Origin: Bacillota bacterium | GTDB taxonomy: Bacteria > Bacillota > UBA994 | Assembly (NCBI GenBank): GCA_009773495.1 | Contig: WSXW01000003.1 | Coordinates: forward strand, 70,551-134,550 | Direction: 5' to 3' | Length of the DNA: 64,000 nucleotides | Part shown: positions 8,546-60,302 of the stretch, piece by piece | Numbering within the stretch: position 1 is the first letter of the stretch | How the letters are laid out: every line of letters starts with the position of its first letter | The notes under the pieces: generated by a model | Databases searched by the model: none | Told to the model about the DNA's origin: nothing | What the model saw: only the letters and a program-made list of their open reading frames with translations | Position numbers and translations under genes: made by a program

Positions 8546-8582
8546 AAAGACCGATAAGCAAACTGCTTACCGGTCTTTTAAA
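8546..8582 (+). terminator. rho-independent terminator after the MFS gene
   Basis: AAGACCGATAAGCA-aac-TGCTTACCGGTCTT hairpin followed by TTTTAAATT. Confidence 0.65.
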
Positions 8583-8881
8583 TTACCCCCACAATGCCGT
8601 TAACCCTTTGTTTTGAACCTGCTCTCTGCAGGTGGGTAACCGCACTATGTACCTCGCGAATCCGGCTTAGCGGCTGCCACTCAGTACATTGTTATTGGTT
8701 TCCCATTTTGTTGGTGTTAGGAACAAAACTCTCGGGCCTCACGCACATCGCAGGGCAAACTGCGTAATAAATCTGTTTCTTGGTTCTATCTTAGCACGCT
8801 TCATTGTCCACTCGCAACATGAAAATACTGTATCACTTGGCAATGTAGTATGAATAGACTGTAGCAGAGGGAGGTGAAAGC

Positions 8882-39084: not shown

Positions 39085-39216
39085 CAAATCAAAGTGCCCA
39101 TGCTAGGAAACATGGGCACAAATTATTGTGCTTAAGCTTCCCTACGCTGGTCTTAACCAGATCAGGTTCAAAGGGTCAGGGACATAGCTCCCTATCTCAG
39201 CCCAGCGGGCCCCCCT
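39085..39216 (-). promoter_or_regulatory. TPP (THI-box) riboswitch with a terminator expression platform
   Basis: Minus strand reads GGGGGGCCCGCUGGGCUGAGAUAGGGAGCUAUGUCCCUGACCCUUUGAACCUGAUCUGGUUAAGACCAGCGUAGGGAAGC. This matches the TPP aptamer consensus (CUGAGA ... ACCCUUUGAACCUGAUCUGGUUAAUACCAGCGUAGGGAA). It is followed by a GUGCCCAUG...CAUGGGCAC hairpin and a U-run. Confidence 0.85.
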
Positions 39217-39352
39217 AGCAACAATATGCTGTTACTATATAGTTTATCATGGAAAGTGAGAAGTGCAAGAGTGTAAATTGAGCAACGGTACCTCGTACAT
39301 CGTACTTAGCACCTCGTAGAATAACGAAATACGATGTACGAAGTACGACTTA

Positions 39353-43404: not shown

Positions 43405-44718
43405 TTACTTGTCGAAAACAACCTGTCCGTGTACTTCTGTCTCAAGTGCTCTCAGCGCTCTACGCACCAGCTTACGACGAAGTTCCTTCTCTTCACCAGC
43501 GGTAAGGAGAGGATTGCCCAGCGGGTACGGAATAGCTACAGTTGGAATAATGCGGTTAGCACCAACTGTGAGCGAAATCGGCACAACCGTGCACATATGA
43601 GCAACAGGTAGTCCAGCGCGTTCAATTTCCTTTACCATCGTTGCACCGCAACGTGTACAGGTGCCTCAGGTACTGGTAAGAATTACTGCTTGGACGCCAT
43701 CGTTAATAAGTTCTTGTGCGAACTTCTTCGCGAAAGCTACAGAGTTGTTAACGGAAGTACCATTACCAACTGTTGTGTAAAAATAACGATGCAATTCGCC
43801 AATCTCCCCGGCTTGCTCCATCTCGCGGAGGACATCCACCGGTAGAACACGGTCAGCGTCTTGATTAGCATATGTGGGGTCATACCCACCGTGAGCGGTA
43901 GCGTAAGTGTCTGAAGTCAAATCGGTCACACCGGCGATATCGTACTTACCGTACTTGCTAGCGCTAGATGACTCGATATGGTCCGGGTTACCCTTAGGCA
44001 CAATACCACCGGAGGTAACGAGAGCAATCTTAGCCTTGGCAGCGCATGCAATAGGCTGGTTGGGAGCAACGCGGTCGAAATGTGGCATGGCGTATTCTGT
44101 GGTGAAAGGCTGCCCATTGATTTTGGCGATGAGCATATCTACGGCACGTTTCGAACCACGCTCGGTGTGGAAGTAATTCTGGCGAATGCCGCGAGCCATG
44201 TAGCCATGAGTCTCTGGACTTACTTCTTCACCCTGCCCGAGAGCTACAACCACCTTAATGATAGCTGGAACGGCTTTGCGCATATCTGCGGCGCTGTTAC
44301 TGGTCTGTACGATATATGCGAACTTACGATACATATCCACACCTGGGTTTTCAGGGTACATGCCGGTGACTACAGGGATCGCAAGTTCTTCTGTAATCGC
44401 TTTAGCTACAGCACCGCAAGCAACACCGTAACGCCCTGCGTTAAAAGCTGGGCCAGCGATGACAACATCAGGCTGATGTTTCTTAATCATCCCGATGACA
44501 GTGGACAAGGCTTCATCTAGGTTTTCGTTGAAATAGCTGTCACCGCAGATTACAGTGGCTACGATTTCGCCTGCATTTCCTAGAGCGGCCTGGAGAGCTT
44601 GACCGGGGCCTACAACACCTGCACGTTCTTCGGGACGATAGTCAGCCTTGTCTTCGCCGCCAATGCCGCCGTAGAACTGGTTCAGGTAATGTACAACCCT
44701 AATTTTCTGGTTGCTCAT
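43405..44718 (-). CDS. grdB: glycine/sarcosine/betaine reductase selenoprotein B (contains in-frame UGA=Sec at 43666-43668)
   Basis: ORFs 43666..44718 and 43405..43638 share one frame and are joined through TGA. The junction reads ...U-G-T-C-T-R-C-G-A-T-MVKEIERAG. A CGUUGC-ggu-GCAACG hairpin lies about 15 nt after the UGA. Confidence 0.8.
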
Positions 44719-44751
44719 GTTCTTCCCCCCTTCTGTTAACTCTGCAAGTAA

Positions 44752-45216
44752 CTACTTACCGTATTTGCTATGAGAATCACGCATGTTGCCTACTTCAGCG
44801 TTAATGGCCGGAACATCGAGTACCATTTCCATCATGCTGATTTGTTCCTCGTAGATTTCTGCATCAACTTGCTCTTTAAGTTCGAAAATGTGATAGACTG
44901 CGAGCCCTAACTGGACTCCTGCCAAAGGACCGGCGAAGGTTGGATCACCAGCAGTTACGGTCTCAGCAGCGAGGCCTGCAGCCTCAGCTTCTGCGCCACC
45001 AAGAACAACAACAATGTTCTCAGCACCGTACTTTTCTGTGAGTTCCTTAACCCTACGTTGGTTTTCCAGATCCATGGCACCTGCGGCTGTTCAGACAAAA
45101 CACTCGGTAACTGAGAACACGACTTCAGCGCCAGCGGACTTCACGCATTCTTCAATGGCTGGTCCTGGCACGCCGTCGCGGTCACCAAGAATGACCACTT
45201 TTTTGCCTTTAAGCAT
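44752..45216 (-). CDS. grdA: glycine reductase selenoprotein A (in-frame UGA=Sec at 45091-45093)
   Basis: Reading upstream of the listed 107-aa ORF in frame gives [53 protein letters not shown]... This is the GrdA CxxU active site. GGAGG lies 8 nt before the ATG at 45216. Confidence 0.85.
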
Positions 45217-46955: not shown

Positions 46956-47103
46956 TTTATTTCACCTCCCTAATTGTACTGGGGCGCCTTCCGCCTTCCG
47001 CTTCTTAGAACGAAGGCGGAGAACGCATTAGCTCAATTTTTGGCGCTTTCCACTGTCTTCTATCGTCTTATTGAAAAGCGGATAGCGGAGAGCGGATAGC
47101 GGT

Positions 47104-48324
47104 CTAACGCAATTCGTCAATCTTAGCCTTTATGGCAACTTCGGTAATTTCGTCTTCGACCAAGCGTGAAGCAACTTCGCCGCGATGGAAGAAGAGCACT
47201 GTTGGATTCTGGACAACACCATAACGGGTTGCAACCCGCTGGTTACGATAGGTATCCATCTTCCAGAGTTTTACTGACTGACCGCCGGATGCGAGTGCGC
47301 CCTCAATCATAGGCATCATCTCGATACTCTTACCGCCCATAGGAGTCCAGAAAACGACTGCAACTGGACGTGACTCTGCGAGTACTGAGTCCCGGAAGCC
47401 CTCTTCTTCGATGAGGAATTTCTCAGCGGCTACGGCAGCGATAGCGCCGTCTGCAGCAGCAGTGACAACCTGGCGAAGGTACTTAACTCTAGCGTCCCCG
47501 ACGGCGAAAACGCCATCAACGTTTGTCTCCATGCGGTCATCGGTAATAATGTAGCCACGTGAGTCAAGATTAACTACACCTTTTAGGAAATCTGTTTGTG
47601 GAACGGTACCAACATAGATAAATACACCGTTTGTCTCCATCTCGGTGAGTTCGTTGGTCTTGATGTTCTTAAGAACAACAGCCTCAACTATGCCGTCCCC
47701 CTTAATCTCATTTATTGTAGAGTTCCATACGAACTTGACCTTAGGGTTTTTGAAGGCGCGTTCTTGTAGCATAGGCGCAGCGTCGAGTATCCCCTCATCG
47801 TGTATAGCTATTATCGTTACCGAATTGGCAAATTTAGTAAGGTGGTTGCCCTCTTCAATGGCTGCGTCGCCGTTGCCAAGGACTACAATGTCTAAATCAG
47901 TAAAGAAGTCAGCATCACAGGTGGCACAATAGGATACACCCTTGCCGCGCAGAGCGTGCTCGCCTTTTACACCTAATGTACGCGGGACTGCTCCTGGTGC
48001 AAAAATGAGAGTATGCGCTTTGTACTCGGTACCGTCTTTGCAACGCACAATCTTCTTCTCAGCGTCAATAGACACAACTTCATTGCGCACAAATTCAGCA
48101 CCAAAATGCTTGGCATGTTCGGTGAAAGCGTTCATCAGGCCAGGGCCTGTAGTGCCAGCAGCAAAACCAGGGTAGTTTTCCATGTCTTCCGTAGTAGCTG
48201 CCTGACCACCGGTCTTCCCCTTTTCGATAAGCAAGGTCTTAAGTTTTGATCGGGCGCCATAAATAGCAGCTGAAAGACCGCCAGGGCCGCCGCCCACTAT
48301 GATAATATCCCAAATATTAGACAC
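47104..48324 (-). CDS. trxB: thioredoxin reductase fused to a C-terminal thioredoxin-like domain lacking the CxxC motif
   Basis: FAD motif GGGPGG, redox CATCD and an NAD(P)H site. An extra ~95 aa has a Trx fold but FWTPMGG in place of WCGPC. GTG start with AAGGAGA upstream. The first ~60 codons of the listed ORF are non-protein-like. Confidence 0.7.
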   Translation of the reverse strand: MSNIWDIIIVGGGPGGLSAAIYGARSKLKTLLIEKGKTGGQAATTEDMENYPGFAAGTTGPGLMNAFTEHAKHFGAEFVRNEVVSIDAEKKIVRCKDGTEYKAHTLIFAPGAVPRTLGVKGEHALRGKGVSYCATCDADFFTDLDIVVLGNGDAAIEEGNHLTKFANSVTIIAIHDEGILDAAPMLQERAFKNPKVKFVWNSTINEIKGDGIVEAVVLKNIKTNELTEMETNGVFIYVGTVPQTDFLKGVVNLDSRGYIITDDRMETNVDGVFAVGDARVKYLRQVVTAAADGAIAAVAAEKFLIEEEGFRDSVLAESRPVAVVFWTPMGGKSIEMMPMIEGALASGGQSVKLWKMDTYRNQRVATRYGVVQNPTVLFFHRGEVASRLVEDEITEVAIKAKIDELR

Positions 48325-48545
48325 AAAGGCCACTCTCCTTCTGTAGTTTATATGAGCAGAGCGACAAGCGCTCGGCACAAGTGAGGGAACGGGCAGTGAG
48401 CATTGAGCAGGAGTTAGGCTTGAGGCTTTAGGCGTTAGAAGTACGGCAAGCGCCTTCCACGATCCACACGTCTGAACTATCCGTGTTCTGTGTACGCCGT
48501 TCCACAAGGAACAAGGAATGCCTCATGTGCTATGTGCCGCCCCGC

Positions 48546-49209: not shown

Positions 49210-49415
49210 AAAAAAATGAACGGCAAAGCATGCCGCCCAATTCTCTGTCCTGAAATACCTGAGAGATTCCGCGGCCCTCCGCTTGCTCCTTCGGTGCCAT
49301 AACTGGCTTTCCAGAGTGCTGTCAGCAGTGCGGTCCTTTTGCCTGAGAGTTTATGCTGCCTTTGGCGAAAGGTCAGATTGCTCCTTCGGCGCCCCAGTAG
49401 GGGTCTCTCCCGCTA
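49210..49415 (-). promoter_or_regulatory. tandem glycine riboswitch (two aptamers) with a terminator, leader of the grd operon
   Basis: Aptamer 1 on the minus strand reads GGGAGAGACCCCUACUGGGGCGCCGAAGGAGCAAUCUGACC...CUCUCAGGCAAAAGGACCG. Aptamer 2 reads CUCUGGAAAGCC...GGCACCGAAGGAGCAAGCGGAGGGCC...CUCUCAGGUAUUUCAG. Both have the GGAGAG / ACCGAAGGNGCAA / CUCAGG cores. They are followed by a GGGCGGCA-ugcuu-UGCCGUUC hairpin, a U7 run and then the ATG. Confidence 0.85.
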
Positions 49416-49589
49416 GCTTCTTCCAGCTAGTATGTTGTTCTTACCTAGAGAATATCATGCTTAAGACAAGCCTGCAAGGCAAATTTAGACTATGGGGCAG
49501 GAATAGACCTCGCTGCGGTAGAATAGTGTACTAGACTGAGCACATCGACAAAAATCTGGATATTTATTGTGAAAGGGGTAGTGATCACG

Positions 49590-50587: not shown

Positions 50588-51661
50588 TCACAGCTCAGTT
50601 TCATGTTGAACTGCAAAGCACTTGCGTTCCACCACTTTTATGGGCCCTGCACTGCCGGATTTGCATTCACCCACACAGGCGGCGTCTACTCCAGCCGCAC
50701 GCAGTTGCTTTAGGGCCTCAGCAACGCGCTCTGCTGGCACTGCAAACAACAAGCCTCCACTCGTCTGCGGATCATACAGAATATCTCTTATTCTTTCCTC
50801 CACACTATCTGCAAACTCCACGCCCACGCCAAAGTGTTCTGCATTTCGATAAGCCCCGACAGGAATGAGTCCCATAGATGCATACTCAGTGGCGCCCGGC
50901 AGCAGAGGTATCTCGGAAACCCACAGCTCTAGCTCAACTTTACTGGCTCGGGCTAGCTCCATACAATGTCCAAGCAGACCAAATCCCGTAATATCAGTGC
51001 CACCACGCACACCAAAGCCCTTAAGTATTTCGGCTGATGTACGGTTAAGCATAGCCATTTGTTGTAATGCAAACGCCACATGAGAATCATCAGCTAAACC
51101 TGCCTTACTGGCTGTAAAAATAATGCCGCTACCTAAAGGCTTTGTCAGAATGAGCTTGTCTGTTGCTCTCGCTCCGGCGTTACTTATAATTTCTTTTGGG
51201 TGCACTGTTCCTGTAATAGATAGACCATATTTAACGTCCTGATTCTCAACTGTATGACCGCCTAAGACAACTACTCCGGCTTCCAGGCACTTGTCTGCCC
51301 CGCCGCGCATTACCTCGCCCATTACCTCAGGTTCAATGCAGGTTGCATAACAAACTATGTTGAGAGCAGTGAGCGGTGTCCCGCCCATAGCGTATACATC
51401 GCTTAAAGAATTAGCGGCAGCTATCTGCCCGAACATATAGGGATCGTCGGTCATGGGTGAGAAGAAGTCTAGCGTCTGCACAAGGGCAACGTCATCGGAA
51501 ATTTGGAATACGCCAGCATCATCACTTGTATCCAAACCAACCAAAACTCGAGCGTCTATAACTGTCGGCATAGCTGCCAGCAGCTTACTAAGGACTCCCG
51601 GTCCTAATTTACTGGCTCAGCCACCTCCTGATGAGAGTTCAGTTAACCTAACGTACCCCAT
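50588..51661 (-). CDS. selD: selenide, water dikinase (selenophosphate synthetase), Sec-containing form (UGA at 51617-51619)
   Basis: Extending the listed ORF upstream in frame gives MGYVRLTELSSGGGU-ASKLGPGVLSKLLAAMPTVIDAR... Sec replaces the active-site Cys. An AGGAC-cggga-GUCCU hairpin starts 11 nt after the UGA. Confidence 0.8.
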
Positions 51662-52590
51662 CGGTGCTTCCTCCCTTCTACTAGCTGACGTGCTTCCGGG
51701 GATCGAAGGAAGTTCGCCAGTTCTGCCACCGCCCGCCCACCATAGCGATGAGGCATAGTAATTAAGAAGAACGGGCGAGCGAACTTAACGCCTGCCAAGC
51801 TTACCGCGGTTGCTGTACCAAGTAAAAGAGACTTTTCAGCGGCGTACATTGACACCAAAGCCACGCCCAAGTTGGCCTCGACCGCGTTAACAGCCGCTAG
51901 GGAAGTTCCCACTTCCAAAACCGGTGTTAGTCGACTTGGCGAAAGACCAGCTGCAGAGAGTTCTCGTTCATATACGGAGCGACTTCCTGAGCCAGAGGCC
52001 CTACCCACAAACGGTTCCCCGTACAATTCCTCGAGAGCGACTTCTTTAAGACGGGCGAAACGGTGACTGGGATTAACTAGAAAAATTATCTCATCACTAA
52101 AAACAGCTTCCGCTCGCACCGTAGGATCTTTTGGCTGAGCGCCTACAATACCAAGATCGAGTTCCCGCCGATTGAGTTTATCTATAATTACGTTGGTGCT
52201 ATCTACTATCAGTCGCGGTTTTACACGCGGATATCTTTGTGTAAAAGCTCTAATGAGCTGCGGGCACAACTGTTCTCCTGGCACAGTACTCGCCCCTAAG
52301 AAAACAGGGCCTGCCACTTCTCCCATCATTTCATCTATCTGCCTGCGAGTGGTATCTACATCGTCTAACAGACGAGCTACACTAAGCGCGGCAAGCTCCC
52401 CTGCGCGCGTTAACTCCATTCCCTTGCTATTGCGTTCGATCAGCTTAGTGCCGAAGTAATCCTCCAAGGCCTGGATATGCATACTCACTGCAGGCTGAGT
52501 GAGGCCAAGCTGCTTGGCAGCTGCAGAAAAAGACCCTGCCTCCATAATAACGGAAAATGTTCGAAAATAGTTCAAATTCACTGCATCCAC
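51643..52590 (-). CDS. LysR-family transcriptional regulator
   Basis: N-terminal HTH FSAAAKQLGLTQPAVSMHIQALE and the LysR substrate-binding domain. Confidence 0.8.
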   Translation of the reverse strand: MDAVNLNYFRTFSVIMEAGSFSAAAKQLGLTQPAVSMHIQALEDYFGTKLIERNSKGMELTRAGELAALSVARLLDDVDTTRRQIDEMMGEVAGPVFLGASTVPGEQLCPQLIRAFTQRYPRVKPRLIVDSTNVIIDKLNRRELDLGIVGAQPKDPTVRAEAVFSDEIIFLVNPSHRFARLKEVALEELYGEPFVGRASGSGSRSVYERELSAAGLSPSRLTPVLEVGTSLAAVNAVEANLGVALVSMYAAEKSLLLGTATAVSLAGVKFARPFFLITMPHRYGGRAVAELANFLRSPEARQLVEGRKHRWGTLG

Positions 52591-54563: not shown

Positions 54564-54659
54564 TGGCGGGAGTATGTGGGAATCGAACCCACCGCGGACT
54601 GAGTCTAGCCCGCTGCCGGATTTGAAGTCCGGAAGGCACACCAGAACCTATCTACTCCC
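54564..54659 (-). tRNA. selC: tRNA-Sec (anticodon UCA)
   Basis: Minus strand reads GGGAGUAGAUAGGUUCUGGUGUGCCUUCCGGACUUCAAAUCCGGCAGCGGGCUAGACUCAGUCCGCGGUGGGUUCGAUUCCCACAUACUCCCGCCA. It has an anticodon loop CUUCAAA, a long variable arm, a GGGUUCGAUUCCC T-arm and an encoded CCA. It lies immediately downstream of selB. Confidence 0.85.
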
Positions 54660-54669
54660 AAGACCTAGT

Positions 54670-56601
54670 TTAGCATGGTAGATTAGCACTGTCAAAGGAA
54701 CTGTTAAGCCTGCGGCTTTCTCCCACTCGCAAAGTAAGCTTTTTCTGATCAAAATATTCTAGTAAAGGCAGAGCAAATTTGCGGCTGCTATCTAGCATGG
54801 TGCGAAATGTAGCTAAGGTCAATTCTTGTTCCTGCGCGAAATGCTCCTGTACCATATCCTTGGCTTGGCATACGGCTGCTCGTGCAAAATACATACCTTC
54901 TGCTATCTTCACTAGCTCTTGCGCTTCGACGAGTGCATCTAAGAGCTCTCGCATGTCTTCAGCAGACAGCTTGATACTATCGACTATTTCTTCCATAGTC
55001 GGGGGGCTATACATTTGCTTAGAGTACAAGCTCAAGGCCAGGTCACGCGCCCGCTGCCATTTTCCGGTGAACTGAACTGTAAAATCGTTGAGAGCAACCG
55101 CACGAGCAGTCAACTTGAGTCTGGCCTCGCCTTGTAACGCCAATAACAGTGCGCTAAAGACTCTGGCGTTAACGGACGGCAATATCCGGCTACGCAACTC
55201 CTCGCGCGATATGCCAGCCCTTAAAGGATAACGCTTATGATGGTCAGCTAAAATCGTAGCGAACCTTTCGCTGAGGTGCGCGATCGTATCGCGATGAATA
55301 ACGTAATCTACATCGTCTGCGCGCATCTCAACAACGAGTTCTTCACTAATTAATAGTTCTAAGGCGTCCTCGGCATCAGCTTTACCAACAGACTTTAGGA
55401 CTTCTTGACGGCTTAATAATCGATCATTATACCTCGCGATGCGTTGGCTTAAGATATCTGCTGTACTGCCGCTTTCTAAAACGCTTAGCTCATGCAGTCC
55501 TTTTTCCTTAAATCTCTTACGTTTCTCTGGAAGTGGGTCGAGAACAGTCCCGCCACCTATGGTAACCATGGGGGAATATGAGCGCATCACGAAACGGTCG
55601 CCGGCCCTTAGTGCAGTTGGCTCCTCCAGACGAAACTGAACAAAAGCGCTCTCACTAGGCAACAACTCTTGGCTGTCTAGCAGTACTACCCTGCACAGAA
55701 TCTCAGCTGTACCTGCATACAGTCGGACTCTCTGACGGTTGCTCAATATTTTCTCCACGTCAGGGAGCAGCGTCACCCGCGCATCCAACATCATGGTCGG
55801 TGTAAGGGAGCCGGGCGCAGTAAGAATATCTCCACGGTTCACCTGTTCAACTGTCACTCCTGCCAGATTCAAGGCGGTCCTTTGTCCCGCTTCAGCCCGA
55901 TCAACTTGCTTGCCGTGTACCCCCACTCCCCTTACTCTCACAAAGAGCTGAGAAGGCTGAATTTCTACTGTATCACCGGGTCGAACGGTGCCGGAAAGTA
56001 GCGTACCGGTAACCACTGTTCCAAAGCCTTGGACAGTGAATACGCGATCAATTGGCAGACGAAAAGGCAAGTTAGAATCGCGCGGATTTACGTCTTCACA
56101 AAAACGGTCTATCGTATCCGTTAGCTCCGGCAGTCCTCTTCCTGTGATTGCAGATACGGGTATAATGGGGGCTTCAGCCAGACATGTACCCTGAACCTTG
56201 TCACGAATTTCGAGCATAACAAGTTCTAGCCACTCCTCCTCAACTAGGTCGGCCTTAGTTAATACGACAATTCCTTGTTTCACCTGCAATAACGAGAGGA
56301 TGTGCAGGTGCTCTGCTGTCTGTGGCATTACACCTTCATCAGCGGCGACAATTAATAACACTAGATCCATGCCGCCAACACCAGCCAACATATTCTTAAT
56401 GAACTTTTCATGCCCAGGTACATCTACTATGCCCGCCCTGCGCCCGCTAGGTAGGTCAAAATAGGCAAAACCCAAATCTATGGTGATGCCCCGCAATTTT
56501 TCTTCCTTGAGTCGGTCGCAATCAATATTTGTTAAAGCTTTGACTAGAGTCGTCTTACCATGGTCAATATGACCAGCTGTACCAATTATGACGTGCTTCA
56601 T
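54670..56601 (-). CDS. selB: selenocysteine-specific elongation factor
   Basis: GTPase G1 motif [10 protein letters not shown] and EF-Tu-like domains, plus a long C-terminal winged-helix SECIS-binding extension. Length is 643 aa. Confidence 0.85.
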
Positions 56602-57977
56602 GATTTTTCCCCAGCTGCCTTACGTAGGGATACTAACAAGTCCTCGGTATCGTGAGGGAGAATGGTACGGGGATCAAGCAACACCCGATCGTGAAGTATT
56701 CTAGCTATAACGGGGATCTCAGCCTGCCGGAGACGCCCTTCGAAGCTCACACAACTCAGGGGAGAGGTAATCGCTACAGCAAAGCCTGGTATATCTCTGC
56801 CCGGCAGGGAACCTCCCCCCACCTGGCCGACGCATTCAATAACTTGCGCAGTAAGTCCTGCTATGGCGTTAACCTTATCTCTAAGTTCCTCTGCTGCATG
56901 AAACAAATCATCCTGACTCAAATTTAGCATGCGCACGAGGGGTATCTCCTGCCTATGCTCGGCGTGACGATAAAGTCTGAGGGTACTTTCTAAGGCGGCC
57001 AGAGTCATCTTATCGAGGCGCAAGGCCCGTGCTAAGGGGTGAGTGCGTATGCGAGCAATGCATTCGGCCTTACCTACAATCAGGCCAGCCTGTGGCCCTC
57101 CCATGAGCTTGTCGCCACTAAAGGTGACTATATCCATGCCTGTCGCCACGATTTCCTGCACCGTTGGCTCCCCGTAACCGGCAATCAACACGCCACTGCC
57201 TAAATCCTCAATTGCCAGCAACCCATGCTGATGACTAAGTTCTACAAGTGCTTCGGTACTTACATCTTCAGTGAAACCAATCACGCGAAAATTGCTCGTG
57301 TGCACCTTGAGTAAAGCCGCTGTATTGTGATTAATAACCCGTTCGTAATCACTAAGGTGAGTTTTGTTTGTTGCGCCTACCTCGCGTAGTAAGGCCCCGC
57401 CTTGTTCCATAACATCAGGAATTCTAAAGGATCCCCCTACTTCCACAAGTTGTCCGCGCGAAACAACGACCTCTTTACCCTGGGCCAAAGAGCTTAACAC
57501 CAGTAGTACAGCCGCTGCGTTGTTATTGACAGCTATTGCATCTTCGCATCCAGTTATCTCCCGCAGCAACTCCCGCACGTGGTCATGCCTGCTACCACGT
57601 TCACCCCTAGTCAGATCATATTCCAAGTTCGAATAGCCTCGAGCAGCCTGAACTACCGCGGCAATTGCTTGTTCCGCCAAAGGTGCGCGACCCAAGTTCG
57701 TGTGTAAAGGTATGCCTGTAGCGTTAATGACTCTCCGCAGGCTAGGAGAGTTACGCCGCTTAGTCTCTTTTGCAACCATCTCACCTATACTACTTATGGA
57801 TATCAGAATATCTAGTGATTGCGAGCCAATAGCTATCGACTCCCGTAGCTCTTGTAAAACGTTGCGCAGCACCACAACGACCTGTTCCCTCCCATGCTCA
57901 GCAACTAGGTCTTGGATAGCTCTGTTAGCGAGCAAATCATCCATCTTGGGTATCAGCCTGTACAGGTCACTGGTCAT
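56598..57977 (-). CDS. selA: L-seryl-tRNA(Sec) selenium transferase
   Basis: 459-aa PLP enzyme with the SelA pattern. Its stop overlaps the selB start by 4 nt. Confidence 0.8.
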
Positions 57978-58902
57978 GGCCGGTCACCCCGCTCAGATAC
58001 TTCTCAACGATAGATGCGACCAGTGCGCCATCTCCGACAGCAGTGGCCACTTGACGCAACACCTTTTGCCTGACGTCCCCTGCTACCAATACACCTTCAA
58101 CCGATGTACTTAAGTGCTGGTCAGCAACAACATAACCGCTATGGTCGAGCTCAATGATTGTGCGCAAAAACTCGGTATTAGGCTGGAGTCCGATATAGAT
58201 AAATATCCCATCGACCGGGATAGTTTCAATCTCGCCAGATTTTACGTTAGCCAGGGTGAGAGATGTTACTTTGGTGTCACCATAAATGGCTTCTACAATG
58301 GTATCGAATTTCACTGTTATCTGTGGGTTACGCATAGCTCGTTTAGTAAGAATAGGCGTAGCACGGAACGAATCGCGGCGATGCACGAGAATTACCTCTT
58401 TGGCGAAGCGAGTGAGAAAAACTGCTTCTTCTACCGCGGAATCAGAACCGCCTACTACGACCACCCTTTTGTCTCTGTATAAAGCCCCGTCACAAGTAGC
58501 GCAATATGACACCCCTGTGCCCCTAAACCTAAGCTCGCCCGGCACGCCTAGTTCCCGCGGGGAGGCACCCGTAGCCACGATAACACACTTAGCCTGATAT
58601 GTGCCGCCGTGCCCCTCCAGGAGCTTAACTGGCCCTACCAGTTCAAGTCTGTGGATTTCGTCGTAGATCACCTCAGCCCCAAAACGCTGCGCTTGGTCTA
58701 GCATTGATAACGCTAGATCTACACCGCCTATACCTTGAGCAAAGCCAGGGTAGTTTTCGATACTAGCTGTAGTGGCCATTTGCCCACCCGGTGCGAGCTT
58801 CTCAATAACGACTGTTTTGAGGCTAGCTCGGGCACAGTAGAGTGCCGCCGTTAACCCTGCTGGACCTGCTCCTAAGATGCAGACATCGTATATCTTGCTC
58901 AC
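57967..58902 (-). CDS. trxB: thioredoxin reductase
   Basis: GAGPAG FAD motif and CATCDG redox centre, 311 aa, GTG start. Its stop overlaps the selA start. Confidence 0.85.
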
Positions 58903-58921
58903 GTTAGATTTCCCCCTCCCC

Positions 58922-58962
58922 CAAAAAAATATAAAGACCCACGCGACAATGCCCGTGGGTCG
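58922..58962 (-). terminator. rho-independent terminator after the HMA-domain gene
   Basis: GACCCACG-ggcattgtcg-CGTGGGTC followed by a U-run on the minus strand. Confidence 0.6.
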
Positions 58963-58966
58963 AGAC

Positions 58967-59176
58967 CTACGCCTCTACGTCGTAACCTGCTTCGACAATG
59001 GCCCCTTTTATCGTGTCAAGTGACACCTTACTAGGGTCGTGACCAAATGTCACTCGACGAGTAGCGAGGTCCACCACAACGTTGCTGACTCCGGGCAAAC
59101 TAGCCAGTGCTCGACTCACGGTCGCTTTGCAGTGACCTCAGGTCATGCCAATTACGGTTAGGGTTACTTCTGTCAT
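58967..59176 (-). CDS. CopZ-like heavy-metal-associated (HMA) domain protein with selenocysteine in the metal-binding motif (UGA at 59138-59140); unannotated in the ORF track
   Basis: ATG at rc 59174-59176 with GGAGG 8 nt upstream. Translation gives [69 protein letters not shown]. This is a canonical HMA fold (GMTCxxC becomes GMTUxxC). A CGAC-cguga-GUCG hairpin lies about 13 nt after the UGA. csoR is upstream. Confidence 0.6.
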
Positions 59177-59314
59177 TTTGGTGGCCTCCTTAATTAATCA
59201 CAAATCACTAGGAGAAGCGCTTTCCGCCTTCTAGTACCCGACAGCATTACGGAGCAATGCGACAGGGCGCTTGCCGCTTAAGCATGGCTCGTCAGGTGCG
59301 CCGCCTACCCGCAC

Positions 59315-59578
59315 TTACTTAACATACCTCTGCAACACATGCATCAATTCGTCAATGGAGCTGTCGGCGTGCCCTGACTTGATAGCAGCTGACAAACACC
59401 CGCGGGCGTGTCCATCAAGAATTTGCATACCTACTTTATCTAAAGCTGCGCGAATGGCAGTTATTTGCGTCAAGATCTCTAGGCAATACCGGTCTTCTTC
59501 AACCATTTTCTGCACACCACGCACTTGCCCCTCGATGCGACTTAATCGTTTAATTACGACATCACTATTAGCCTTCAT
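59315..59578 (-). CDS. csoR: CsoR/RcnR-family metal-sensing repressor
   Basis: RLSRIEGQVRGVQKMVEEDRYCLEILTQI...H..C, the DUF156/CsoR signature. Start is taken at an internal Met to avoid overlap with fur. Confidence 0.7.
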   Translation of the reverse strand: MKANSDVVIKRLSRIEGQVRGVQKMVEEDRYCLEILTQITAIRAALDKVGMQILDGHARGCLSAAIKSGHADSSIDELMHVLQRYVK

Positions 59579-60062
59579 TGTTCCCATCCCTACACTTTGC
59601 GCAATATCCATAGAAGCGCAAACTATGGTCAACTATCTTAAAGTTACTCTGCGTAGCGATTCTCTCTTCCAAGTCATCTAAGAAATCTTCATTGAACTCG
59701 ATTATTTCCCCACAGTCTAAACACAGTAAATGATGATGGTAGTGTTTCTCCCTATCCCCAGAGTATTCATATTTTCTACCACCCTCGCCAAAATCGAGGC
59801 GAGAGATTACACCAAGCCCTTCAAACAATTCGAGGGTGCGGTAGACAGTAGCTAGGCCAATTTCTGGGTTACGCTCACGAGTTATGCCATAGATGTCTTC
59901 AGCCGTCATGTGATCGTGATCGTTGTTGAGTAGGATGACCAATATAGCCTCACGCTGGGGAGTGAGGCGAAAATCCTTCTCCTTCAAAAGGTCGCGAATT
60001 TCTGATACTACTTTTTGCTCAACCAAACTCTTCCCCACCCTCATACTCTTTGATCTTAGCAT
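59568..60062 (-). CDS. fur: Fur-family metalloregulator (Fur/Zur/PerR)
   Basis: HHHLLCLDCGEIIEF and CAKC Zn-site motifs. A TTGACA-18-TAAGAT promoter lies upstream at ~60080-60110 on the minus strand. Confidence 0.75.
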   Translation of the reverse strand: MLRSKSMRVGKSLVEQKVVSEIRDLLKEKDFRLTPQREAILVILLNNDHDHMTAEDIYGITRERNPEIGLATVYRTLELFEGLGVISRLDFGEGGRKYEYSGDREKHYHHHLLCLDCGEIIEFNEDFLDDLEERIATQSNFKIVDHSLRFYGYCAKCRDGNNEG

Positions 60063-60302
60063 GCCATGCTACAGTCTAACTGTCAAGTTTACCCATAGCA
60101 TTTGTCACGCCCTCATTTGCTCTGCCCTACCCACGCTGATACGGAGATAGGTGGGCAGCCCAAACTCATAACCTAGTCGCACCTCAACACCATGTCATAG
60201 TAGCCTAGGATATAACTGCCGGGTATCCGCATGAACAGTAGTGAGAACGGAGGGTTGCAGATAAAGACCATTTTGGTCTTGTCGGTACATCTGGTCGTAA
60301 CA

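Follow-up and report, generated by a model that had tools for sequence, protein, structure and literature searches.

The locus studied here poses a plain question: does a TGA codon within a short minus-strand gene end translation, or does it encode selenocysteine (Sec) at the metal site of a small metal-handling protein? The gene lies directly downstream of csoR in a stretch of 64,000 nucleotides (nt), hereafter the window, of contig WSXW01000003.1 from a Bacillota bacterium of the UBA994 lineage (assembly GCA_009773495.1, positions 70,551 to 134,550 of the forward strand; coordinates below are those of the window). An initial annotation had proposed a 69-codon gene with a strong ribosome-binding site, absent from the open reading frame (ORF) track, whose read-through would give a heavy-metal-associated (HMA) protein with Sec in place of the first cysteine of the metal site. 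All of its parts were found: an AAGGAGG Shine-Dalgarno sequence, ATG at 59176–59174, 12 sense codons, TGA at 59140–59138 (codon 13), 56 further sense codons, the last of which encode GYDVEA, and TAG at 58969–58967. With cysteine put for the UGA, the translation matches Pfam HMA (PF00403) over the whole profile (positions 1–62 of 62; 73.6 bits, E 1.6e-20, cutoff 24.8). The two-cysteine GMTCxxC signature of HMA domains reads GMT-(UGA)-GH-C here, the second cysteine being kept while the first is UGA in all orthologues. We conclude that this is very probably a genuine Sec-decoded HMA protein, in which, to judge from the comparisons below, selenocysteine almost certainly stands in place of one of the two cysteines that hold the metal. 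Taken as a whole, the explanation that we consider likely is that of a genuine 69-residue selenoprotein of the HMA/CopZ fold, most likely one that handles Cu(I).

Conservation of the TGA codon and of the reading frame

The orthologue set comprises about 15 distinct loci from metagenomes, belonging to several lineages, at which the HMA proteins are 51–94% identical to that of the window and the neighbouring thioredoxin reductases (TrxR) 58–92% identical. The first relative found was a fragment of 50 amino acids, 94% identical; its contig, L001, bears the same gene with the same TGA, and the Shine-Dalgarno sequence and the 12 codons ahead of the TGA are kept there while the intergenic DNA just upstream is unalignable. 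By synteny, TrxR homologues of 58–76% identity were traced to their contigs. Every traced contig carries the order Fur-CsoR-TrxR-SelA-SelB with a seemingly empty gap of ∼300 nt between CsoR and TrxR, and in each gap there is an HMA gene whose codon 13 is TGA. Scanning metagenomes for GGNATGACNTGAGGNCAYTGYAAR returned ten loci, all ten of them true HMA-frame genes, and added three lineages (L043/49/50/52, L044/48 and L046).

The check proposed at the outset, whether homologues carry a cysteine codon or TGA at the motif, gave a uniform answer: TGA occupies codon 13 in all of the ∼15 distinct loci and the cysteine codons TGY in none. The codon for the cysteine at position 16 is TGC or TGT in all orthologues, and the motif of one of them (L054) is U-G-S-C. 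All loci have AAGGAGG, GGGAGG or AGGAGG 6–9 nt 5' of the ATG; no Shine-Dalgarno sequence precedes an internal GTG at any locus compared, the GTG itself being conserved. Outcomes that the initial annotation had set against its own proposal were thus not encountered. None of the homologues ends at the TGA, ATG and Shine-Dalgarno sequence being kept 12 codons upstream; no separate ORF led by a ribosome-binding site follows it, the internal GTG having none; and the TGA is no pseudogene mutation peculiar to one strain, as it is shared across lineages with proteins down to 51–64% identical.

Selection at the level of the protein extends to both sides of the TGA. V8, G10 and T12, encoded 5' of it, are conserved as residues and differ in their synonymous codons among loci, a sign that selection acts on the protein in this part too. 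Over all 69 residues, the HMA sequence is under purifying selection as a protein, and the residues of the metal site are intact. TGA otherwise acts as an ordinary stop, terminating 10 of the 34 long ORFs in the window. A pseudogene, a split gene and codon reassignment are all very unlikely, because the TGA is conserved, TGA is a normal stop here and other Sec genes are present in the window.

The gene is invisible to routine annotation. The mechanical ORF list of the window shows only a GTG-started fragment of 50 amino acids at this place (58967–59119), several gene callers report that GTG ORF only, and in the assemblies examined the HMA position is uncalled or bears at most the 50-amino-acid fragment or a mistranslation of TGA as tryptophan. 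An exact look-up of the window's 50-amino-acid fragment gave no match. An exhaustive HMMER search covered 1.84 billion representative proteins: among the matches listed, the relatives above ∼50% identity are all fragments of 36–50 amino acids, and no Cys-type protein exceeds 48% identity. Scanning genome contigs with the U-to-C protein found, among the matches listed, only Cys-type relatives of at most 50% identity and no orthologue. Identities of 52–54% were recorded for the nearest true Cys-type CopZ proteins; all Cys-type CopZ homologues have cysteine at the position of codon 13. One apparent full-length relative with a sense codon, P0276 (a JGI record), proved to be a pipeline artefact: it is the L041/L051 gene with its TGA translated as tryptophan (GMT-W-GHC).

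In a distance tree on the 69 residues, the main clade, including L044, stands together, and L046 falls among Cys-type CopZ proteins, with 61% identity to P0279. This placement hints at more than one switch from Cys to Sec, of which that in L046 was possibly independent, a tree of so few residues being weak evidence on the point. The Pfam HMA scores of L044 and L046 are 79.7 and 73.7 bits.

The fold was viewed in the AlphaFold2 model of the L041 orthologue P0276, which is 64% identical to the window protein and has W at position 13. The model (pLDDT, the predicted local distance difference test score, 91.3) has strands at residues 2–9, 30–36, 41–46 and 66–68 and helices at 14–25 and 53–62, the beta-alpha-beta-beta-alpha-beta order. 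Strand beta1 (residues 2–9) is encoded wholly 5' of the TGA, position 13 falls within the metal loop that joins beta1 to alpha1, and the 50-amino-acid product of the GTG would lack both beta1 and this loop.

A candidate recoding element downstream of the UGA

The initial annotation had noted a hairpin at a spacing like that of a selenocysteine insertion sequence (SECIS). It was borne out, not as the helix directly after the UGA, but as CGAC[CGUGA]GUCG, nt 17–29 after the U of the UGA (59124–59112; brackets enclose the loop), with the family form CGRC[CGUGA]GUCG. Across 11 sequences, the four pairs C17-G29, G18-C28, R19-U27 and C20-G26 are paired in 100% of cells, one of them being A-U in some sequences and G-U in others. 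The underlying codons 18–22 (GCG RCC GUG AGU CGA; nt 16–30 after the UGA) show one synonymous change in ten lineages, while all 21 other invariant degenerate residues vary synonymously (Fisher p=0.0017, permutation p=0.0003). The freezing of the hairpin also accounts for the conservation of the internal GTG.

A second line of evidence comes from selD, itself a Sec gene of the window. The 11-nt hairpin core (GACCGNGAGUC / GACCGNGAGTC) occurs in exactly two copies in the 64-kb window as compared with 0.08 expected, and none of 100 shuffles reached two; the copies stand 14 nt past the HMA UGA and 13 nt past the selD Sec-UGA. The selD hairpin, AGGAC[CGGGA]GUCCU, starts 11 nt after its UGA, and the core GAC-CGNGA-GUC is identical in the two elements save at the single N position. 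The apical loop starts 17 nt after the UGA in the HMA gene, 16 nt in selD and 18 nt in grdB, the last a SECIS validated by its Rfam match (SECIS_4, 43628–43665). All share a G or GU in the loop. Bacterial SECIS elements have an apical loop ∼16–37 nt after the UGA with a G in it, and in the proposed comparison with such models loop offset and loop base agreed, while the short stem and the Rfam searches told against the element. A conserved hairpin, the lack of which would have counted against Sec, is thus present, synonymously frozen and with a core shared with the selD SECIS. Different hairpins are found at the same place in the two divergent lineages, starting 11–12 nt after the UGA: GGCCGC[CGUGGA]GC-A-GGCC in L046 (-9.1 kcal/mol) and GCAG-C-UGUC[ACCAA]GGCA-CUGC in L044 (-9.4 kcal/mol).

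Several observations weigh against this element. None of the Rfam SECIS families (SECIS_1 to SECIS_5) matches at E<=10 in 58800–59400. The stem of the window's own copy has only 4–5 base pairs and is weak (core -2.3, extended -5.5 kcal/mol), and folds of the whole region after the UGA are no better than shuffles; thermodynamic z-scores are uninformative after the HMA UGA, and equally so for the validated grdB SECIS. No two-sided or classical covariation was seen within the main clade, because the hairpin is almost invariant there. Finally, RNAalifold prefers a different weak helix, pairing nt 7–12 with 19–24. We set this helix aside, as it is mostly forced by the codons for H-C-K-A-[AT]-V, leaves the frozen AGU-CGA codons unexplained, and has its one covarying pair broken in the window's own sequence; it remains as an unexplained alternative.

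The minimum-free-energy (MFE) helix right after the UGA, pairing nt 4–7 with 18–21, shows a seeming covariation (U-A to C-G). It was rejected because 4 of 11 sequences break it and because the ribosome would enclose it during decoding.

Base 3 of the Cys16 codon and base 1 of codon 19 (59117–59134, minus strand; alignment columns 7–24) covary as U-A or C-G in 10 of 11 lineages, the window having C.A. While the UGA is being decoded, this helix would be within the ribosome, and the covariation may be a coincidence or an alternative fold of the mRNA.

Neighbourhood, metal partner and competing readings

The features of the locus and of the neighbouring Sec genes are collected in Table 1.

Table 1. 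Features of the candidate Sec-HMA locus and of the Sec genes nearby (window coordinates).
Feature	Position	Strand	Evidence or remarks
HMA/CopZ-like gene, predicted to contain Sec	58967..59176	(-)	69 codons + stop, Sec at codon 13; sequence, translation, Pfam HMA, orthologues
Shine-Dalgarno AAGGAGG	59185..59191	(-)	8 nt spacer to ATG
In-frame TGA, codon 13	59138..59140	(-)	encodes the first metal ligand in GMT-U-GHC
Candidate bacterial SECIS	59109..59125	(-)	stem nt 17–20 with 26–29 after U of UGA, loop CGUGA; G16-C32 possible extension
csoR, CsoR/RcnR-family repressor	59315..59578	(-)	Pfam Trns_repr_metal 104.7 bits; C...H-x3-C fingerprint
Fur-family regulator, overlaps csoR start	59568..60062	(-)	Pfam FUR 133 bits; synteny conserved
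Terminator-like hairpin GACCCACG...CGUGGGUC + U-run	58923..58961	(-)	5 nt past stop; MFE -20.6 kcal/mol
trxB, thioredoxin reductase, immediately downstream	57967..58902	(-)	TIGR01292 381.7 bits, cutoff 343
selA	56598-57977	(-)	TIGR00474 575 bits
selB	54670-56601	(-)	TIGR00475 388 bits
tRNA-Sec	54564-54659	(-)	ARAGORN + Rfam
selD, Sec-containing	50588-51661	(-)	ATG 51661, TGA 51619–51617 (GGG-U-ASK)

The link to metals rests on the company that the gene keeps and on its family. CsoR is the sole neighbour conserved in all lineages and always has Cys...His-x3-Cys, a C-H-C ligand set that we take to be typical of Cu(I)-sensing CsoR and not of RcnR, FrmR or CstR; in L039–L042 the stop codon of csoR and the Shine-Dalgarno sequence of the HMA gene overlap. 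The pairing of csoR with this gene, pointed out in the initial annotation, holds in all lineages. The best NCBIfam match of the window protein is CopZ, with 79 bits as against 48 for MerP; the closest solved chains by sequence are CopA HMA domains and CopZ; and the best structural matches of the P0276 model are S. aureus CopZ (6ff2) and B. subtilis CopZ (2qif), at TM (template modelling) scores of 0.94–0.96 and a root-mean-square deviation of 0.7–0.8 Å, followed by MerP (1osd).

The three genes fur, csoR and the Sec-HMA gene probably form one transcription unit with fur first, as the terminator-like hairpin at the 3' side and a conserved promoter 5' of fur suggest. GC-rich terminator-like hairpins with a U-run are conserved at most orthologous loci, 5–12 nt past the HMA stop codon. 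A consensus terminator scanner made no call at 58923..58961, because the loop exceeds 8 nt. A promoter-like TTGACA-N17-(T/G)CATGCTAA lies upstream of fur (∼60063–60130, minus strand) and is likewise conserved at most orthologous loci; neither a CsoR nor a Fur box was recognized in this promoter region.

The course of events that we propose is the following. SelB with Sec-tRNA(Sec) would bind the mini-hairpin CGAC[CGUGA]GUCG, with its loop 17 nt after the UGA, and insert selenocysteine. The protein would be expressed as the product of the last gene of the fur-csoR-HMA(U) unit, under the CsoR repressor with its C-H-C ligands. Sec13 and Cys16 would then hold an ion of a soft metal, most likely Cu(I), between them in a Se-metal-S site, and the protein might buffer the metal or pass it to an exporter encoded elsewhere. 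Sec has a lower pKa than Cys and is a softer and more polarizable ligand. From this general chemistry, a Sec ligand is expected to give tighter binding and faster exchange of Cu(I) than Cys, and Sec13 should form a selenenylsulfide with Cys16 more readily, a bond that the adjacent thioredoxin reductase system could reduce.

How far does the evidence single out copper? The placement in copper homeostasis made by the initial annotation stood in part: the C-H-C CsoR is found everywhere and copper is the likely metal, while some findings tell against it. No P-type ATPase motif or CopA-type ATPase was found in the 64-kb window; no CsoR operator was recognized at the locus; the main clade falls short of the CopZ cutoffs (NF033795 79.0 bits with a cutoff of 91, TIGR00003 56.1 with a cutoff of 62); and the ATPase at the L046 locus scores higher as a Zn/Cd/Hg/Pb-type pump (223, 211 and 196 bits) than as a Cu-type pump (157 and 154). 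The L046 orthologue itself passes the CopZ cutoffs (NF033795 99.2, TIGR00003 78.1). That the protein is specifically a copper chaperone, as family and genomic context suggest, is therefore put forward with some confidence, though with clearly less than we attach to the decoding of the UGA.

The L046 locus is arranged differently from those of the main clade. In the orientation of the genes, csoR occupies 310–609 and the predicted Sec-CopZ ∼640–850, a convergent heavy-metal P-type ATPase follows at 941–1783, and no trxB-selAB lies downstream.

The principal alternative accepts a real Sec-HMA protein but gives it another partner: a different soft metal or metalloid (Hg, Cd/Zn), or a role in redox or selenium trafficking tied to TrxR and the Sec genes. 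Synteny with trxB-selA-selB-tRNA-Sec holds throughout the main clade, trxB being present at all of its loci, and would be natural under such a role, as would a window devoid of CopA. The terminator-like element between the HMA gene and trxB nevertheless argues against coupling of the two, and the C-H-C CsoR is the universal neighbour, even in L046 where trxB-selAB is missing. The preference of the L046 ATPase for Zn/Cd/Hg/Pb-type models points the same way as the third rank of MerP among the structural matches and as the mercury or heavy-metal annotations carried by known HMA-type selenoproteins; against these stand the convergent orientation of that ATPase, which places it outside the operon, and the first rank of CopZ among both family and structural matches. 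We regard a partner other than copper as rather unlikely.

A broader version of the preferred reading would make the protein both a natural Se-S copper(I) chaperone and a checkpoint for selenium, full translation through the Sec-UGA letting transcription run on into the genes for Sec synthesis. A single operon would then tie together the sensing of copper, the selenium status and the expression of the Sec machinery. We consider this improbable.

More radically, the UGA could be mainly a regulatory stop: a short Sec-dependent ORF would report on selenium or Sec-tRNA by way of the terminator and tune read-through into trxB-selA-selB-tRNA-Sec, the protein being secondary. The terminator-like hairpin does part the Sec-HMA gene from these genes. 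The selAB operon of E. coli has been reported to be regulated by a SECIS-like element that lies upstream of it, and here the position of the hairpin right past the stop codon in most lineages, the conserved order of the Sec gene before selAB, and the failure to see a promoter-like site between the hairpin and trxB would all fit such a device. Terminators close behind stop codons are common, however, L046 retains the Sec gene with no selAB downstream, and purifying selection on all 69 residues with an intact metal site argues for a protein that matters in itself; we hold the regulatory role to be very improbable. Finally, termination at the UGA, leaving a decayed copZ pseudogene or a 12-codon peptide and the 50-amino-acid GTG product, is barely credible: the output of the ORF list and gene callers, the conserved GTG and the lack of an Rfam SECIS match are what it has to offer, but the TGA is kept at a ligand codon in ∼15 loci whose proteins are down to 51–64% identical, with the frame intact on both sides and a Shine-Dalgarno sequence at the ATG only, the frozen hairpin accounts for the GTG, the GTG product would lack beta1 and the metal loop, and L001 keeps the 12 N-terminal codons while the adjacent intergenic DNA has fully diverged.

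Related selenoproteins and the Sec genes of the window

Sec at HMA-type metal sites is already catalogued, in UxxC P-type ATPases, in the UxxU family NF041115, in MerP and in MerT/CopZ fusions. The nearest counterparts in form are the CopZ proteins of Firmicutes (B. subtilis 1K0V/2QIF, S. aureus 6FF2, NF033795), encoded in csoR-copZ-copA operons. Like them, the window protein is a stand-alone HMA protein of ∼69 residues with the GMT-x-GH-C loop and the same fold, its gene lies directly 3' of a C-H-C CsoR, and CopZ is its best NCBIfam match. It differs in having UGA (Sec) where CopZ has cysteine as first ligand, and the main clade scores under the CopZ cutoff; copA is not adjacent, and trxB-selA-selB-tRNA-Sec lies downstream instead.

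The cation-transporting ATPase E1-E2 selenoprotein also has UxxC in a heavy-metal-handling protein, presumably in the HMA domain at the N-terminus, the place of CxxC in P1B ATPases. There, Sec belongs to a domain of a large membrane pump, whereas here the gene ends after 69 codons with a stop and a terminator-like hairpin and encodes no ATPase domain. Closer in size is NF041115 ('UxxU_metal_bind', formerly 'putative mercuric reductase', from an Olavius symbiont), a homologous, small, stand-alone HMA-like protein with Sec at its metal site. The window protein reaches 53.4 bits against this model (profile positions 4–67 of 74) and the orthologues 52–60, below the cutoff of 95; NF041115 has Sec at both ligands (UxxU) in contrast to the U-x-x-C found here, and its taxonomic and genomic contexts are different too. 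The MerT/CopZ fusion NF045683 and, from the GOS and Sargasso surveys, the 'MerP' and 'MerT' selenoproteins are likewise heavy-metal-handling and have HMA-type modules with Sec. The window protein scores 31.6 bits with NF045683 (cutoff 375), in the HMA part only (positions 163–226); it has neither the MerT membrane domain nor an extension resembling a signal peptide, and its context is CsoR and not mer. As for the candidate recoding element, it resembles the bacterial SECIS of grdB and selD in loop position and loop bases, and differs from the Rfam families in matching none of them and in its stem length.

In the literature and database searches, no entry or paper was found that describes a free-standing CsoR-linked CopZ with UxxC, and no NCBIfam model claims the window protein; nor did the literature searched yield a direct report of experiments with Sec-substituted Atx1 or CopZ. 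The family would add to the prokaryotic selenoproteome a conserved, unannotated member, a CopZ that stands alone, is linked to CsoR and has Sec-x-x-Cys, and would offer a natural system in which to ask how a selenolate affects the Cu(I) affinity, exchange kinetics and redox sensitivity of a metallochaperone. The short, organism-specific SECIS core GAC-CGNGA-GUC, common to two unrelated Sec genes, could help in mining uncultured Firmicutes for selenoproteins. The general picture is unchanged and no new principle is involved, because Sec at such metal sites is already known.

The window is well equipped for Sec synthesis and use. The initial annotation had placed the full toolkit within 8 kb: selA, selB, tRNA-Sec and selD are all present, and only the distance needs amending, the far end of selD being ∼8.4 kb away. 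ORF lists show selD only as a truncated part of 327 amino acids. Beside SelD, the further Sec genes of the window are those for GrdA (CFV-U-TAAG, TGA at 45093) and GrdB (TGA at 43668). They lie in a glycine-reductase cluster with a glycine riboswitch upstream (43628–45093 and 49321–49422, minus strand). A second TrxR-like gene, with a C-terminal extension (∼47100–48525, minus strand), is found downstream of the riboswitch; a TGA in frame at 48525, with a neat hairpin after it, was considered as a Sec site there and discarded, since it lies upstream of the gene's real start. A LysR-family regulator (51643–52590, minus strand) adjoins selD and scores 203 bits with NF040786, 'selenium metabolism-associated LysR', below the cutoff of 250. 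The window also contains a thiamine pyrophosphate (TPP) riboswitch (39122–39226) and 6S RNA (8582–8759).

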